28,771 nt of DNA from a virus: positions 1-28,771 of IMG/VR virus record IMGVR_UViG_2778260947_000001; one strand, 5' to 3'. Each line of letters opens with the position of its first letter. Position 1 is the stretch's first letter. The notes under the pieces are model-generated. The model was not told the origin of the DNA and did not search any database. It saw nothing but the letters and a program-made list of their open reading frames with translations. Positions 1,376 to 12,888 of the stretch are shown here, in pieces. Both the position numbers and the translations under genes were made by a program.

Positions 1376-1581
1376 GTGTTCTGCCATCGACGCCGGACCG
1401 CGTCGCTGTCGAGACGCTGCAAGGCGACATTCGTTCTGGGCCCGTCGTTGACGAGCTCGTCGAGGCCGACGTTCACGACATCCAGCGTGTGTTCCGCGTC
1501 AACCTCGGTGGGACGATCATCCGTGTCCCAGAGGACGACGCCGGCATCCCCGATGACGCGGTGACTGCCACGCGGCAGTAG
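1372..1581 (+). CDS. Hypothetical protein
   Basis: 69 aa acidic ORF starting at an ATGA overlap. Confidence 0.65.
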   Translation: MSVLPSTPDRVAVETLQGDIRSGPVVDELVEADVHDIQRVFRVNLGGTIIRVPEDDAGIPDDAVTATRQ

Positions 1582-1645
1582 ACGAGGGGATGCATCGTTC
1601 GTCAACCGGCCGGCATCCAGCTCGGGTGTCACAGCCGGCCGCCCT

Positions 1646-1714
1646 GCCCGGTACTGGTGCGCTCGTCCCACATACCCACTCCACGAGCGCGGGGTTCGAC
1701 TCCCTAACCGGGCC
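1646..1714 (+). ncRNA. tRNA-like element (acceptor stem plus T-arm, no D-stem, enlarged central hairpin)
   Basis: GCCCGGT (1646-1652) pairs with ACCGGGC (1707-1713). GGGG-TTCGACT-CCCT T-arm at 1691-1705. Perfect 8-bp stem GCGCTCGT/ACGAGCGC (1659-1666/1683-1690) closing a 16-nt loop. Lies in an intergenic gap. Confidence 0.5.
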
Positions 1715-1747
1715 TACGATGAGTCGCAGTTGCACAGGAGGCGCGTG

Positions 1748-2920: not shown

Positions 2921-3517
2921 ATGACTGATGACGACTACGAGATCTCCGAGGAACCGCCTCGCGATGAGCAGGGCCATCCGATCCATCCTGAGCGAGGCCA
3001 CCGGATCTGCGGGGCCACGAAGTCGGACAAGACGACACCGACTGACCACGGCCGCGAACGCGACGACGTCGACTACTGTCTCCTCGCTGCGGGCTGGGGC
3101 GAGAATCGCGATGTCGGCCCCTGCAGCAAGCACCCCGTCACTGGCGAGCAGTGGGGCGAGTCCAACCCGAACTACGACACTGGCAGCTACTCGGAGTTCC
3201 AGCGCCTCCAGCGCGAGTCGCTGACCGAGCGCGAGCAGGAGATGCTCGACGCGCTCGACTTGGATGAGCATGCCGACGATTTCGCGAAGGACGTCGTCAA
3301 GGAGGCTTACCTGAAGTACCACCGCACTGGTGACGATCGCTTCCTCCGTGAGGCTCGTCAGTGGGCCAAGGAGTTCGGCGTGATCGCGTCGCCGGCGGAC
3401 GAGATCGAGGTCCAGGCCGACGTCAACCAGACGACCGAGCACCAGCTGGGCGACGACGAACGCGAGCTCGCACTCGAGACGATTCGCGAACTCCAGGAGC
3501 GTGATGCCGGTGAGTAG
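2921..3517 (+). CDS. terS: Probable terminase small subunit
   Basis: 198 aa, immediately upstream of and overlapping terL. CGA..C..C-x-x-H..N..GSYS pattern resembles HGGxSTG-type TerS; helical acidic C-terminus. Confidence 0.65.
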   Translation: MTDDDYEISEEPPRDEQGHPIHPERGHRICGATKSDKTTPTDHGRERDDVDYCLLAAGWGENRDVGPCSKHPVTGEQWGESNPNYDTGSYSEFQRLQRESLTEREQEMLDALDLDEHADDFAKDVVKEAYLKYHRTGDDRFLREARQWAKEFGVIASPADEIEVQADVNQTTEHQLGDDERELALETIRELQERDAGE

Positions 3518-5135
3518 TCCTGTCGATGCCGGCGCTATCGCCGACGTCGCGACCGGCCAGGCACTCGACGCGAAACGCCAGACGCTCAACCCGTTCGAGG
3601 GCCCGGCAACGTGGGTTGACTTCGCGAACGAGCTGACGCGGAACTACATGGCCGGCGAGATGGACGACGACCCGTACCATCTCCTCGACGAGCACCACGG
3701 CCACTGGCTCGAGAAGTTCGACGCCGGCGACCGCGTCCTGCTGTGCCATCGCGACGGGCTCAAGACAACCATCACGCTGGCGTACCTCATCGCCTGTCTC
3801 GAGTACAAGCCTGGCTTCCGGGCGATCTGGGCGATGAACAACGAGACATCGGTGACGAAGAAGGCCGACACGGAGTTCTGGAAGATGGTCAACCGGAACC
3901 CGTGGCTGACCAGCCTGAACGCGCCGCCGAAGAAGGACAACATCCAGACGAAGATCTTCGAGAACGGATCGACGCTGACTGCTGGGTGGCTGTTCGGCGG
4001 GATCGAGGGCGACCGCGCGCACCTCCTGGTACTCGACGACATCATCAAGGAGAAGGGTGACGGCTCGACCGACGACGTCCTCGACTGGGTCGAAGCTGTC
4101 AGCGTCCCGATGGTGAAGGACAACGGCCGCACGGTCGTGATCGGGACGCGGAAGCAGACCGACGACATCTACCAGAACTTCCGCCTTCGCGATGGCTACG
4201 ACGTCGATGAGTTCCCGGCGATCCTGGACTACTGGGATCAGCAGTTCAGCGCTGATGACGACTGGCAGGCCCGGCGGCCCGACGACGACCTTTACACCGA
4301 GGTCGAGGACCCGTGGAACGAGGGCGAGACGCTTCAGGTGCTCTGGCCAGAGGCGCGGGGGCCCGAGTGGCTGGCCGATAAGCGCTCGAAGATGGCCGAC
4401 CACCGCTTCTGGCGGGAGTACTCGCTCGTCATCATGGGCTCGTCGGGCGACCTCATCGACGCAAAGGACGTCCGGCTCCCCGCCGAGGACGGTGGCTGCT
4501 CGATCACCGACCGCGACCCGCCGCCGAAGTACCGCGCCGGGCCTGGCGAGGTCGTCATCCTGAGCCACGACCCCGCGAACTCTCCGACCGGCGACGACGC
4601 CGCGTTCACGGTGTGGCTCCTCCAGCGCGATGGTCGACGTCGCCTCCTGGACTGCCACGCCGAGGCGGGGATGAGCCCGAGCGACGTCAAGACCACGCTC
4701 GTCGAGTACGACCGACGCTACGATCCGGCGATCGTGGTCGTTGAGAACAACGGGATGCAGAGCTACGTCGCCGAGGACGCCATCGAGTTCGACGCCCAGC
4801 TGGGTGCGAAAGTGACCGGCATCCCGACGACCGGCGCGAAACACTCCTGGGACAACGGTATCCCGCGGCTACGGATCCTCGTCGAGAACGGTCGCATCCT
4901 GTTCCACCGAGGCCACCGGCCGACCGAGGACTTCATCACCGCGATGCAGAGCCTCGAGCGCCGGGACGGCAAGCTGCACGGCCACACGCCGGACTACATT
5001 GCAGCCTGGTATATGGCGGAAAAGGGCCTCCGGAAGCTCGAGGATATGGGCATCACCGAGATCGACGACATGCCCGATGCCGACGAGGATGAGGAGGACG
5101 ACGAAAGCACGGATAGCGGCCTCTACGGAGCCTGA
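3504..5135 (+). CDS. terL: Terminase large subunit
   Basis: Walker A-like CHRDGLKTT, Walker B HLLVLDD, coupling motif VVIGTR, and a C-terminal RNase H-like nuclease (SHDPA, VVENNG, PDYIAA). Precedes the portal gene. Confidence 0.93.
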   Translation: MPVSSPVDAGAIADVATGQALDAKRQTLNPFEGPATWVDFANELTRNYMAGEMDDDPYHLLDEHHGHWLEKFDAGDRVLLCHRDGLKTTITLAYLIACLEYKPGFRAIWAMNNETSVTKKADTEFWKMVNRNPWLTSLNAPPKKDNIQTKIFENGSTLTAGWLFGGIEGDRAHLLVLDDIIKEKGDGSTDDVLDWVEAVSVPMVKDNGRTVVIGTRKQTDDIYQNFRLRDGYDVDEFPAILDYWDQQFSADDDWQARRPDDDLYTEVEDPWNEGETLQVLWPEARGPEWLADKRSKMADHRFWREYSLVIMGSSGDLIDAKDVRLPAEDGGCSITDRDPPPKYRAGPGEVVILSHDPANSPTGDDAAFTVWLLQRDGRRRLLDCHAEAGMSPSDVKTTLVEYDRRYDPAIVVVENNGMQSYVAEDAIEFDAQLGAKVTGIPTTGAKHSWDNGIPRLRILVENGRILFHRGHRPTEDFITAMQSLERRDGKLHGHTPDYIAAWYMAEKGLRKLEDMGITEIDDMPDADEDEEDDESTDSGLYGA

Positions 5136-5497: not shown

Positions 5498-5675
5498 GAC
5501 TGACCCGCCGAAGATCTGGATCGACCACTACGACCTCAACCTCGGCGTCCGCGGCGGGTCGCAGGACACCCTCGAAGAGGTCAAAAAGGTCTTTGACGAG
5601 GAACTGGAGAAGGCGGCCGAGCGTGACCCGAAGCTCGATGAAGAAGACCTGACAGAATCGAGGGACTTCCAATGA
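5262..5675 (+). CDS. Acidic hypothetical protein, possibly two fused genes (second start at 5490)
   Basis: Start reassigned to ATG 5262 on the basis of the GAGGA SD and overlap. In-frame internal ATG at 5490 is preceded by GGAGGA. Confidence 0.65.
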   Translation: MSDVDYEEAWSEYETALESLADEIEADTPSAGNGSLNGRDWCEENDVPEVMFAHAVEQEFERFDYGVSPMHPWRTTMSETDPPKIWIDHYDLNLGVRGGSQDTLEEVKKVFDEELEKAAERDPKLDEEDLTESRDFQ

Positions 5676-7228
5676 GTAGCGACACTGACTCCGGTGTCTA
5701 CTCCGAGATCACGAAGTCGGTCGCGGAGAAGTCAGCCGAGACCCAGCAGCTCCAGGAGGAACACGTCGGCCAGACCCGCGGCGGTGCTCGCCGGCCACCG
5801 TTCAACCCGGTGAAGATGGCGGAGCTCCTCGAGCACAACGAGACGCACGCAAAGTGCGTTCACGCGAAGGCTCGATACGTCGCCGGCTTCGGTATCAACA
5901 TCGTTCCACACCCAGAGGCTGAGGATCCAGACCCGGACGGTGAGCAGTACGAGCGGGTTCACGACTTCTGGTTCGGTGACGACTCCAACTGGCAGGTCGG
6001 GCCGATGGAGAGCGAGCGGGCGACCGCGACCGACGTCCTCCAAACGGCCTGGACAGACTACGAGGCGATCGGCTGGCTCGCGATCGAGATCCTCACCCAG
6101 ACCGACGGCACGCCCATCGGCCTGGCGTACGTTCCCGCCCACACCGTTTGGAAGCGAAAGGAGGATCGTGGGTTCGTCCAGTTGCTCAATGACAAGACGC
6201 AGTACTTCGGTGTCGCTGGTGACCGCTACCGAACTGACGAGAACGACAGCCCCGACCCCATCTTCGTCGACGGCAACTCGGGGAACACGGGTTCGTCCGT
6301 ATCGTCTCCCGCCAACGAGATCATCTGGAAGCGGAACCACTCCCCGCTCTACCCCCACTACGGAGCGCCCGACGTCGTCCCTGCTGTCCGTGCGATCCGC
6401 GGTGACGAGGCAGCCAAGGACTACAACATCGACTTTTTCGAGCACGACGGCGTCCCGCGCCTGGCGATCATCGTCAAGGGGGCGGAACTCACCGAGAAGG
6501 GCCGCGAGGAGATGCGGACCCTCATCGAGGATAACAACGAGAACAGTCACCGGACGGCGTTCATCGAGACGGAGAAGATCGTTCAAGGCGACGACTACCT
6601 GAACCTCGCCGACGGGGCCGACGCAGATGACGTCGAGATCCGGATCGAGCCGTTGACCGTCGGGATGGATGAGGAGGCCTCGTTCCTCGAGTTCCGCGAC
6701 CGGAACGAGCACGACATCCTCAAGGTTCACGACGTCCCGCCGGTGGTCGCCGGCGTCGTTGAGTCCGGCGCGTTCTCCACCGACTCGGAGGAACAGCGGA
6801 AGGAGTTCGCCGAGGAGACGATCAAACCCAAGCAGCACGACTTCGCGGATCTCCTCTACGAACTCGTCCACAAGCAGGGCCTCGACGCGCCCGACTGGAC
6901 CATCCGGTTCGAGCTGGCGAAGCCCGACACCAAGCTCCAGGATCTCGAGATCGCCAAGCAACGGATCCAGGCGGCGCAGGGCCTCATCACCGTGAACGAA
7001 CTCCGCGAGGAACTCGGGTTCGAGCCGTTCCCGGACGACCACGTCTACGGTGGCCAGACGCTTGTCGTCGAGGTGACTGGAGGCGCTGGCGCAGGCGGTG
7101 GGATGGGCGGCATCAGCCAGCAGATCGAGGACCTCGTCGAGCAGCGAACGGACGAACTTCTCGACGAGTACCAGACCGATATCGACGCCGGGCAGCGGAT
7201 CGAAACCGGTGCTCAGGCCGACAACTGA
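5672..7228 (+). CDS. Portal protein (PBSX/HK97-like family)
   Basis: 518 aa after terL. Motifs LYPHYGAPD, YNIDFFEHDGVP and ILKVHDVPP; C-terminal ITVNELREELGFEP. Confidence 0.92.
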   Translation: MSSDTDSGVYSEITKSVAEKSAETQQLQEEHVGQTRGGARRPPFNPVKMAELLEHNETHAKCVHAKARYVAGFGINIVPHPEAEDPDPDGEQYERVHDFWFGDDSNWQVGPMESERATATDVLQTAWTDYEAIGWLAIEILTQTDGTPIGLAYVPAHTVWKRKEDRGFVQLLNDKTQYFGVAGDRYRTDENDSPDPIFVDGNSGNTGSSVSSPANEIIWKRNHSPLYPHYGAPDVVPAVRAIRGDEAAKDYNIDFFEHDGVPRLAIIVKGAELTEKGREEMRTLIEDNNENSHRTAFIETEKIVQGDDYLNLADGADADDVEIRIEPLTVGMDEEASFLEFRDRNEHDILKVHDVPPVVAGVVESGAFSTDSEEQRKEFAEETIKPKQHDFADLLYELVHKQGLDAPDWTIRFELAKPDTKLQDLEIAKQRIQAAQGLITVNELREELGFEPFPDDHVYGGQTLVVEVTGGAGAGGGMGGISQQIEDLVEQRTDELLDEYQTDIDAGQRIETGAQADN

Positions 7229-8645: not shown

Positions 8646-10436
8646 ATGAGTACACAGGAGAAGCGTCACTTCACCAAGCACGTCGCCATCAAGGCGATCG
8701 ACGAGGAGGAGCAGACCGCCACCGGGATCGTCTTGACGCCCTACGAGCTGGACCATCAACTCGACTTCGTCTACCCGGACGGAGTCGGGGCGATGTACAA
8801 CCCTGATCCAGACGATGGCGTCCTCCACGCTCGGTTCCCCGACGATGCGGCGGAGCTCGAGTTCAACGAGGTCCTCGCCGAGGATCAGGAGATCGACGGC
8901 GTGCAGTTCGAAGCCGGCGACTGGGTCGTACGGCGCAAGTATCACGATGACGAACTGTGGTCGTTCGTCGGCGAGGTCCTTCACGGGTTCTCCATCGGTG
9001 GCGACGTCACCGAGGCCGACGAGTTCGACTCGATCGACGATCTCCCGGACGAGGTCGAGATCCCGGACAGCGTCGACCCGGACTCGGTTCCGGACAAGTA
9101 CTGGCCGCCGGCGGGGATCCGTAACGGGGCCACGACGGAGATCTCCGACGTCGACATCCCGGCGGTGACGTCGGCGGTCTACGCCACAAAGTCGGCCGGC
9201 GGCTCCCTCGAGAAGAACCTCTACGAGAACGCCGATGATCGCGAGGACTTCGTCGAGACGATGTCGAATCGCGGTGCTCCCGAAGACACCGCGGGCGAAC
9301 TCTGGGACTACCTGGAGCAGCTGGAGAAGACGGCTCCCGACGGCGCCGTCGCGAAGTTCTTCGCTGACGCCGAGAAGGCGGAGGAGATCATCGACCAAGA
9401 GAGTCAGCAACCAGACATGGAAGACAGCAACCCACCCGACGACGAGCCCGACGACGCCACGAAGTGGCGGCGGTTCAAGTCGTGGCTGAAAGGGTCGGAC
9501 TCCGATGTCGCCGATGCCGATGACGGCGTAAGTCCCGCGGACGGGCAGTCCGAGGTCTCGGCGGGGACGTTCTCGAAGGCGATCGACGTCGCCCGGGACG
9601 TCTCGAAGGAGGGCCGCACCCTCAACGCCCAGAACCGCGAGGCGTTGATGGCAGCCCACGACGCGATCGAGGCGGCGCTCGAGTCGGAACTCGACTTCGA
9701 GGGGAACCGATTTACAGACGACGACAAGACGGACTTCGACATCGCTCAGTTCGGCGGCTCCAGCGAGGGCGGCGACGATGGCGATGGCACTGAGAAGTCT
9801 CGACCGACCGAGAAGCTCACCGAAGAGCAGGGCGAGCTCGTCCTCGGCGCACTCCAGCGATTCGTGGACAACCAGGGCGAAGCGCCCTTCTCCGACTTCC
9901 GGTCCTGGGTCTGGTCGACAGACATCCTCGACGACGATACGGCGTTCGCGGCCGACGAGGCCGCACACCAGTACCGCGAGTGGGTCCGCGAGCAGCGCGA
10001 TCAGACTCCGGTCACCGAGGACTTCCTCGACTGGGTCCAGAGCGAGAGCGACACCGACACCGAGATCACCATGAGCAAGGATACCGACAACGACACGGAG
10101 AGCGAGGACGAGAAGAGCCTCGCCGAACAGAACGCAGAGGCGATCGACGAACTGACGGACACCGTCAAGGACCTCACCGACGAGATCTCCGACGGCGGAG
10201 AAGGCGACTCGGAGAAGTCCGCCGGCGGCGACGGCGGCGAAGAGGAGGGTGAGGCAGACGAGAAGTCCCAGGCTGAGAAGAACGCCGAAGCGATCAACGA
10301 ACTCGCCCAGTCGGTCAAGAGCCTGGCGGAGGCATCTGGCCACAGCCAGCAGCTGGACTACGACGGCGAGACCGAGAAGGACGCCGACGGCGAGCCCGAC
10401 GAGGGCGAAGTCAAGAAGGCGTTCCTCGGTCTGTAA
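8646..10436 (+). CDS. Prohead protease (XkdF-like) fused to an acidic scaffold region
   Basis: N-terminal KAIDEEEQTATGIVL..P...D and GDWV...GFSIGG resemble XkdF-type proteases. Acidic C-terminus carries two coiled-coil repeats (EKSLAEQNAEAIDEL / EKSQAEKNAEAINEL). Directly precedes the MCP gene. Confidence 0.8.
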   Translation: MSTQEKRHFTKHVAIKAIDEEEQTATGIVLTPYELDHQLDFVYPDGVGAMYNPDPDDGVLHARFPDDAAELEFNEVLAEDQEIDGVQFEAGDWVVRRKYHDDELWSFVGEVLHGFSIGGDVTEADEFDSIDDLPDEVEIPDSVDPDSVPDKYWPPAGIRNGATTEISDVDIPAVTSAVYATKSAGGSLEKNLYENADDREDFVETMSNRGAPEDTAGELWDYLEQLEKTAPDGAVAKFFADAEKAEEIIDQESQQPDMEDSNPPDDEPDDATKWRRFKSWLKGSDSDVADADDGVSPADGQSEVSAGTFSKAIDVARDVSKEGRTLNAQNREALMAAHDAIEAALESELDFEGNRFTDDDKTDFDIAQFGGSSEGGDDGDGTEKSRPTEKLTEEQGELVLGALQRFVDNQGEAPFSDFRSWVWSTDILDDDTAFAADEAAHQYREWVREQRDQTPVTEDFLDWVQSESDTDTEITMSKDTDNDTESEDEKSLAEQNAEAIDELTDTVKDLTDEISDGGEGDSEKSAGGDGGEEEGEADEKSQAEKNAEAINELAQSVKSLAEASGHSQQLDYDGETEKDADGEPDEGEVKKAFLGL

Positions 10437-12513: not shown

Positions 12514-12887
12514 GCTTCCCGTCCGCACCGGCGAAGGCTCGCCAGCGGCTCCAGATGCACGGCTCCGACATCACCATCCAACACTACAAGATCGAGGATG
12601 GTGGCTCCCGCGGCAGTCGACCGGTCGAGTCCGAACAGCAAACCGTCAAGGCGTACGTCCAGGACAAGTCGGCGTCGACGAACCTGCACGAGCTGCTCGG
12701 TCGCGAACTCTCGATCGACGTCCGGTTCCGCGTCCTCGAAGCGGCGATGCACGATGACCTCCGCGACGGTGGTCACGATGGCGCGTCACGAGTGACCTAC
12801 CGCGAGCGGACGTACGTCGTCGAGCACGTCGAGGATGAGGGCGATGGAACGCTGACGCTTCACTGCTCAACCTGGGAATCAGACTAA
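12510..12887 (+). CDS. Probable head closure/stopper protein
   Basis: Start reassigned to ATG 12510 (ATGA overlap); 125 aa, beta-rich, ending RTYVVEHV...TLTLHC. Confidence 0.65.
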   Translation: MSFPSAPAKARQRLQMHGSDITIQHYKIEDGGSRGSRPVESEQQTVKAYVQDKSASTNLHELLGRELSIDVRFRVLEAAMHDDLRDGGHDGASRVTYRERTYVVEHVEDEGDGTLTLHCSTWESD

Positions 12888-12888
12888 G

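Follow-up and report, generated by a model that had tools for sequence, protein, structure and literature searches.

A covarying tRNA-like RNA without a D arm ahead of the packaging module in a phiH/phiCh1-like provirus: a candidate viral t-element

The DNA analysed here (the window) is a 28.8-kb stretch, taken whole, from an IMG/VR provirus record of a phiH/phiCh1-like virus of salt-loving archaea. Its likely genes all lie on the + strand, and its large terminase (TerL, encoded at 3501-5135) shares 84% identity with the enzyme of Halobacterium virus phiH1 and 80% with that of Natrialba virus phiCh1. The biggest non-coding gap within the first 16 kb covers 166 nt (1582-1747). On its 5' side lies a 69-aa ORF without a family (1372-1581), the TAG stop codon of which (1579-1581) stands 8 nt 5' of the conserved element described below; homologues of this ORF (87-97% identity) are also located 5' of the element in four related loci (L026, L060, L072, and L073). 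On its 3' side, a 77-aa ORF with a hydrophobic N-terminus (1748-1981) opens a block running toward the packaging genes, containing an HNH gene (2600-2884), a putative small terminase subunit gene (2921-3517; named by position, its sole family match being of unknown function), TerL, and the portal gene (5672-7228). A second apparent gap of 375 nt (12514-12888) probably represents a gene with lower GC3, and it folds no better than its shuffles (z -1.05).

The element itself occupies positions 1590-1714 on the + strand (~125 bases), directly before the packaging genes. It is separated from the ATG at 1748 by a 33-nt spacer (1715-1747) that carries GGAGG at 1737-1741. No AT-rich promoter box was seen either in the ~190 nt upstream of the element or in the 33-nt spacer, and the element is thus probably embedded in a read-through transcript, i.e., co-transcribed with its neighbours. 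No T-run was seen 3' of the element.

An earlier note on this DNA had described a tRNA-like RNA with an additional upstream hairpin in this gap. On re-reading the sequence, the stems, linker, T loop, upstream hairpin, and 33-nt gap were each found where they had been placed. The element begins with a 5' stretch (1590-1606; AUGCAUCG...GUCAACCGG) that is single-stranded in the consensus fold; the stretch TCAACCGG is invariant in the first eight aligned sequences (alignment A1) and nearly invariant in wider sets (A3, A4). Hairpin P1 follows (1607-1641), with 8 bp (1607-1614/1634-1641) and a loop containing the conserved motif CCAGCUCG at 1617-1624. After a 4-nt spacer, the 5' strand of an acceptor-like stem (GCCCGGT, 1646-1652) forms seven perfect pairs with ACCGGGC at 1707-1713, the 3' segment (1707-1714) being completed by a discriminator-like C1714, without CCA; C1714 is the predicted tRNase Z cut site. 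The 7-bp acceptor stem of the earlier note is thus perfect in the window; among relatives, however, the seventh pair (1652/1707) is mismatched in most, and the stem that is kept has 6 bp.

Between the acceptor-like strands, the D arm is absent. In its place stands a 6-nt linker (1653-1658; ACTGGT, i.e., ACUGGU in RNA), in which G1656 is G18-like (G or A among relatives) and G1657 is G19-like (invariant), with the consensus N-NNYRG-N. Next comes hairpin P3 (1659-1690), with 8 bp (1659-1666/1683-1690) and a 16-nt C/A-rich loop (CCCACATACCCACTCC). The T arm (1691-1705) is built from a GGGG/CCCT (CCCU) stem (1691-1694/1702-1705), of which the outermost pair in the window (1691/1705) is G.U, and the loop TTCGACT (1695-1701; U54 U55 C56 G57 A58 C59 U60); its family consensus is GGGG / UKCRACU / CCCC. 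The family plan ends with two variable nucleotides, then the 3' acceptor strand and, as discriminator, C or A. Six acceptor pairs, two variable layers, and four T-stem pairs make 12 layers; the acceptor/T stack of tRNA likewise has 12, as 7+5. P3 is the least constant part, with a 5-bp core kept across relatives and loops of 3-17 nt. Its long form (8 bp, 16-17-nt C/A-rich loop) occurs in five distinct sequences, the window included, among which the loop sequence itself is kept; elsewhere P3 has 5-6 bp and 3-5-nt loops, so that this hairpin is no equivalent of an anticodon arm. The short form, seen for example in L031 and L032, measures 52 nt.

Shape alone is no proof that the element exceeds chance, as a descriptor of the acceptor-like stem plus T arm finds 0.45 matches per Markov-2 random sequence of window size. 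The full 167 nt of the gap region also folds no more stably than its shuffles (z +0.46). The 69-nt domain 1646-1714, taken alone, folds exactly as the proposed three-way junction, and none of 200 shuffles is as stable (z -2.84). What carries the element beyond chance is its recurrence, since 27 homologues of it carry compensatory changes. These homologues (22 distinct sequences) come from genomes of the Haloarcula family, IMG/VR contigs, metagenomes, and one Haloarcula plasmid. They were gathered by (i) blastn in loci fetched by their terminases, (ii) DNA-level searching of the 232 genomes from the family to which Haloarcula sp. NS06 belongs, (iii) two covariance models, (iv) pattern scans of IMG/VR and metagenomes, and (v) a plasmid collection. 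Three further candidates (L071 and L025/L027) were discarded as chance matches to the search patterns. A covariance model run on 151 genomes drawn from across the order gave no copies other than the two already known, in genomes G001 and G023; the element was not found within 5-8 kb upstream of terS/TerL in phiH1 and phiCh1; blastn of positions 1300-2000 against a phage collection gave no match; and the exact T-arm pattern of the window was not found in IMG/VR.

In the model-fitted alignment, 98.6% of cells across the four helices hold standard pairs, and 14 of 23 pairs have changed on both sides. None of 500 shuffles comes up to these values, and partners slid out of register are paired in 39-51% of cells. 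Compensatory changes occur in three of the four helices. In P1, 6 of 8 pairs are altered on both sides (e.g., C-G to U-A in 10 rows), with 96% of cells paired. The acceptor-like stem is paired in 100% of cells, with changes on both sides at 4 of its 6 pairs (GC/AU/GU; CG/UA/GC/UG). In P3, the same is true of 4 of the 5 core pairs. The T stem is invariant in the 22 rows, bar the G.U of the window. All four helices are retained in the divergent copy L018, the sequence of which is almost entirely different. The same four helices were independently predicted by RNAalifold from a plain MAFFT alignment of eight sequences. At least 14 cells are G.U or U.G and would be A.C mismatches on the opposite strand; thus, the structure belongs to + strand RNA. 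We regard the structured RNA as real with next to no doubt, and the earlier note's proposal of a tRNA-like RNA without a D stem on the + strand is borne out by its conservation in the family.

In tRNA, the D loop and T loop meet at the elbow through G19-C56 and G18-psi55, with R57 stacked between G18 and G19. In the element, C56 and the second linker G (G1657) are invariant, and the linker purine (G1656 in the window) goes with T-loop position 55 in 22 of 22 rows, G accompanying U55 in 8 and A accompanying G55 in 14. Position 57 obeys the same split, except in L018. The T loop reads UKCRACU in every row, and the G at position 55 in 14 rows sets these apart from the host element discussed below; G is not known to occur at this position in tRNAs. 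A maximum-likelihood tree from which these columns were left out needs four joint switches of the linker purine and position 55 (3-4 in bootstraps), though the tree is poorly resolved and well-supported branches force only one such switch. Whole-domain recombination could also mimic a joint change. The sequence pattern nonetheless suggests a tRNA-like elbow contact of the linker GG with the T loop, and it shows that this GG, which the earlier note had likened to that of a D loop, matters. The element would offer a small, naturally occurring test of the minimum of tRNA from which an elbow can be built: a 6-nt linker stands in for the entire D arm and changes in step with the T loop.

All copies found are intergenic, and each virus carries one in the DNA examined; the element is therefore not a dispersed punctuation system. 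Where TerL is present in the locus, the element usually lies 1.1-1.9 kb upstream of it, even where TerL is just 51-61% identical to that of the window, and the position is kept despite differing terminase types. Where an upstream ORF is readable, it stops 3-57 nt short of the start that the model gives the element. The next ORF begins 31-34 nt 3' of the element in the clade of the window and 13-63 nt 3' in other homologues with readable flanks, and at least three families with no relation to one another are represented among these next ORFs. In the 3' flanks read, the discriminator is not followed by CCA, and G stands at +1 in 21 of 22 rows. Homology to several relatives stops directly after the 3' acceptor strand, which indicates that the element moves together with the block upstream of it and marks the border of a module. 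The family could serve as a marker of that boundary in these proviruses, and it fills an unannotated gap in public records. One example is an 88%-identical copy at 9976-10109 of NZ_CP010534.1 (L172:6001-6134), within an unannotated 221-nt gap. This record, the circular 41.9-kb 'plasmid unnamed5' of Haloarcula sp. CBA1115, has portal, terminase-like, and protease genes and looks like an episomal provirus. Separately, in a more distant relative (TerL 61% identical), an ordinary tRNA-Phe (GAA) gene precedes TerL by ~2.1 kb (L014:2809-2883).

A precedent for such an RNA exists in haloarchaea. For Haloferax, two articles (PMC4326828, PMC3296008; citing Hoelzle et al. 2008, 2012) state that tRNase Z cuts a tRNA-like t-element preceding 5S rRNA, and t-elements are described there more generally as substrates of RNase P and tRNase Z. 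We located the 5S rRNA of Haloarcula sp. NS06 and, upstream of it, a t-element with a 41-nt plan (L082:1459-1499). Its acceptor-like stem has 6 layers, its linker (ACUGGUACUC) is 10 nt long, and its T arm consists of a 6-bp stem and a UUCGAUU loop. The 5S rRNA begins one base after the t-element discriminator G. When the viral covariance model R2 was run on rRNA loci, the host t-element came out on top, at weak scores of 17 bits (E 0.011) in L082 and 12.7 bits (E 0.067) in L083. The two elements share the 12-layer acceptor-like/T stack, the 7-nt loop UUCGAYU, a linker opening with ACUGG, the absence of a D arm, and a location (probable for the viral element) inside a longer transcript with the next functional RNA just downstream. 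They differ in that the window element has P3 (5-8 bp, loop 3-17 nt) after its ACUGGU linker, for which the 41-nt host plan holds no counterpart; a 4-bp T stem plus two variable layers in place of the 6-bp host T stem; and the conserved upstream hairpin P1. It is also viral and precedes an mRNA rather than 5S rRNA, and cleavage at the viral element is a prediction. By its sequence, the element reads as the host t-element design with the U-ACUGG-U opening, into the linker of which P3 has been inserted and upstream of which P1 has been added.

The unelaborated host plan also occurs in related viruses, where 41-nt mini t-elements lie in the gap after the portal gene (L007:8494-8534, equivalent to L006:5370-5410; L022:8439-8479; and, on the - strand, L074:6819-6859). 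Each combines a 6-bp acceptor stem with a linker of 10 nt (opening with ACUGG or ACAGG), a T stem of 6 bp, and a UUCGACU loop; the acceptor stems covary fully, and the T stem covaries in one case. Like the window element, they belong to the same virus group and are intergenic on the coding strand, with the T loop UUCGACU, an ACUGG/ACAGG linker, and a covarying acceptor stem. In contrast, they have neither P3 nor P1, they follow the portal gene, and they share sequence with the window element in the T arm only. In L007 and L022, a conserved GCCGGG...CCCGGC hairpin comes after the mini t-element. After the portal gene of the CBA1115 plasmid, no mini t-element was found.

We favour, at a probability of about 55%, the reading of the 3' domain of the element as a viral t-element at which RNase P and tRNase Z cut, where the upstream block meets the packaging module; every cleavage step and its consequences are what we infer from this analysis. 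Positions 1590-1714 would form the structured part of a + strand polycistronic transcript, in which the 3' domain (1646-1714) would mimic the acceptor/T-arm half of a tRNA, elbow-like contact included, with one extra hairpin. Host RNase P would cut at 1645/1646, leaving an upstream message that ends in hairpin P1, which may protect its 3' end. Host tRNase Z would cut after C1714, such that the downstream message would start 33 nt before the ATG at 1748, and a tRNA-like RNA of ~69 nt would be released. The upstream gene block would in this way be separated from the accessory and packaging block. If RNase P and tRNase Z do cut here, temperate tailed haloarchaeal viruses would use the tRNA-processing machinery to split long transcripts.

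The points counted for a t-element are the conserved structure, its + strand orientation, its non-coding nature, the 12-layer geometry, the likeness to the host 5S t-element (which lends weight to the earlier note's suggestion of such an element), the 41-nt copies of the host plan in related viruses, the joint switching of the linker purine and T-loop position 55, the lack of CCA with G at +1, the intergenic position, and the probable co-transcription. Splitting of transcripts by tRNA enzymes is known in mitochondria, for MALAT1, and for host 5S rRNA, with no published report found for an archaeal virus. In plant mitochondrial t-elements (PMC1920247), as in MALAT1/mascRNA, a tRNA-like fold within a long transcript sets the upstream 3' and downstream 5' ends via RNase P and RNase Z, with a stabilising structure on the upstream end. 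These systems differ from the window element in being unrelated in sequence and host; against the mascRNA/menRNA family (RF01684), the element scores 14 bits, under the threshold of 42.5. Several features count against the t-element reading. First, P1, the invariant TCAACCGG stretch, and the kept 16-17-nt loop are not needed by a plain cutting signal and thus speak against a t-element alone. Second, the G55 of 14 of the 22 sequences counts against this reading as such. So do the single copy per virus and the small number of switches, one of them forced by well-supported branches, behind the elbow covariation. The features beyond a cutting signal (conserved P1 loop, TCAACCGG, and long P3 loop) would be accounted for by a trans-acting small RNA or a cis-acting switch, either of which could coexist with cleavage.

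It is possible, though unlikely in our estimation, that the released RNA is itself the product, i.e., a stable tRNA-like small RNA acting in trans, alone or with P1, for which cutting is maturation only. Such an RNA might bind a protein, of the host or of the virus, that reads the elbow or acceptor of tRNA, or it might pair with a target through the C/A-rich loop. Such a role would lead one to expect conservation of sequence and not just of pairing, which is seen at three places, namely the P1 loop with its motif CCAGCUCG, the stretch TCAACCGG, and the P3 loop of the five distinct relatives; the elbow-like covariation suggests a precise three-dimensional fold. Against this, the P3 loop, at 3-5 nt in most relatives, cannot be essential, no target complementary to the P3 loop was found within the window, and no promoter of its own was seen.

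Distinctly less probable is a control point coupled to processing, set where the upstream and packaging blocks of temperate myohaloviruses meet. Cleavage by the tRNA enzymes of the host would here rid the late message of an inhibitory 5' flank and, at the same time, release a stable elbow-bearing mini-tRNA. The latter would act in trans, via the variable hairpin or the C/A-rich loop, on a factor of host or virus that reads tRNA shape.

We hold it improbable that the element is a cis-acting RNA switch for the downstream genes, the start region of the next gene being masked or freed by alternative pairings, whether or not the RNA is cut. The P1 loop (AGCUCG, 1617-1624) can pair with the 3' strand of P3 (1684-1689), with some matched changes in L031 and L073; over the alignment, however, this alternative helix is paired in 82.5% of cells versus 78% in shuffles. 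Pairing between the 5' flank (1581-1603) and the region of the next start (1739-1772) beats at least 95% of shuffles in 6 of the 22 sequences, but it is no better than shuffles in the other 16, including the window (12% of shuffles equal it). The downstream genes themselves also differ among relatives.

We give hardly any credence to the readings of the element as an integration site (attP) derived from a tRNA or as a tRNA gene in decay, of the kind described for the tRNA-like genes of the HF1/HF2 group. Haloviruses of that group do carry partial tRNA-like attP sequences (PMC8707807, PMC7230728), which resemble the window element in being tRNA-like yet poorly scored by gene finders, and the stop of homology at the 3' acceptor strand in some relatives would suit an attachment site. 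However, those sequences match the 3' parts of host tRNAs and adjoin the integrase, whereas the window element has no host tRNA match, and the integrase gene lies 33-35 kb off in G001 and G023. The element is moreover intact and internal in integrated proviruses (as in Haloarcula sp. NS06, at about 323.4 kb on chromosome 1, and in G023), and five host genomes hold no second or partial copy of it. Host matches across the 232 genomes are stretches of 19-36 nt in ~20 genomes, where ARAGORN reports no tRNA; these are probably chance hits in coding DNA. As for the decayed tRNA that the earlier note had offered as an option, decay would not yield compensatory change in three of four helices, among them P1 and P3, which are foreign to tRNA; it conflicts with selection on structure across 22 distinct sequences.

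Just as little weight falls on a DNA-level site (pac, cos, origin, or inverted-repeat operator) or a small ORF. The element does lie upstream of packaging genes and contains inverted repeats, but its G.U pairs function only in + strand RNA, and the repeat arms stand anywhere from 3 to 17 nt apart. For pac specifically, the terminal base of the ChaoS9 pac site lies at nt 46, with base 1 set to match phiH1/phiCh1, and not at the element (PMC6471424). Gene callers could annotate an ORF of 52 codons over the element (1590-1748), the TGA of which overlaps the next ATG (TGATG). This overlap with the next start is what speaks for a small gene; against it, indels of 2, 10, and 17 nt between close relatives break the frame, and the ATG is missing in some of them, for which reason the stretch is not coding.

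The remaining candidates can be dealt with briefly: a tRNA gene and the tRNA-like domain of a tmRNA are rejected, since ARAGORN calls neither on the element, Rfam returns no family at its gathering score (the best, tRNA-Sec of the tRNA clan, reaching 17.5 bits versus a threshold of 47), and P3 loops range over 3-17 nt, and a decoy for anticodon nucleases, another option of the earlier note, is unlikely given the shrinkage of P3 to 5-6 bp with 3-5-nt loops in relatives. Both programs, with Rfam at gathering scores, also return nothing across the window and four homologous loci.

Host and plant mitochondrial t-elements and the tRNA-like attP genes of haloviruses are known; the element described here is a distinct, larger one with a family of its own. 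No published description of such processing elements in haloviruses was found in the literature searched, in agreement with the earlier note, which knew of none in phiCh1-like viruses. Within this virus group, the ChaoS9 paper states that only ChaoS9, among the three viruses, carries a tRNA gene (PMC6471424), and the word 'tRNA' does not occur in the phiH1 genome paper. Of note, phiH1 contains a cloverleaf tRNA-like sequence of a separate kind (L084:5044-5118, i.e., MK002701.1 55043-55117), with a second copy at L002:869-948; alignment of the element with the phiH1 tRNA-like region gave no real homology. These sequences are 75-80 nt long with an 8-nt anticodon loop, and ARAGORN calls them 'tRNA-???' with the anticodon gcac. 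The phiH1 copy lies inside the hypothetical CDS PhiH1_455 and ends 26 nt before PhiH1_460, and compensatory changes distinguish the two copies in the anticodon and T stems.
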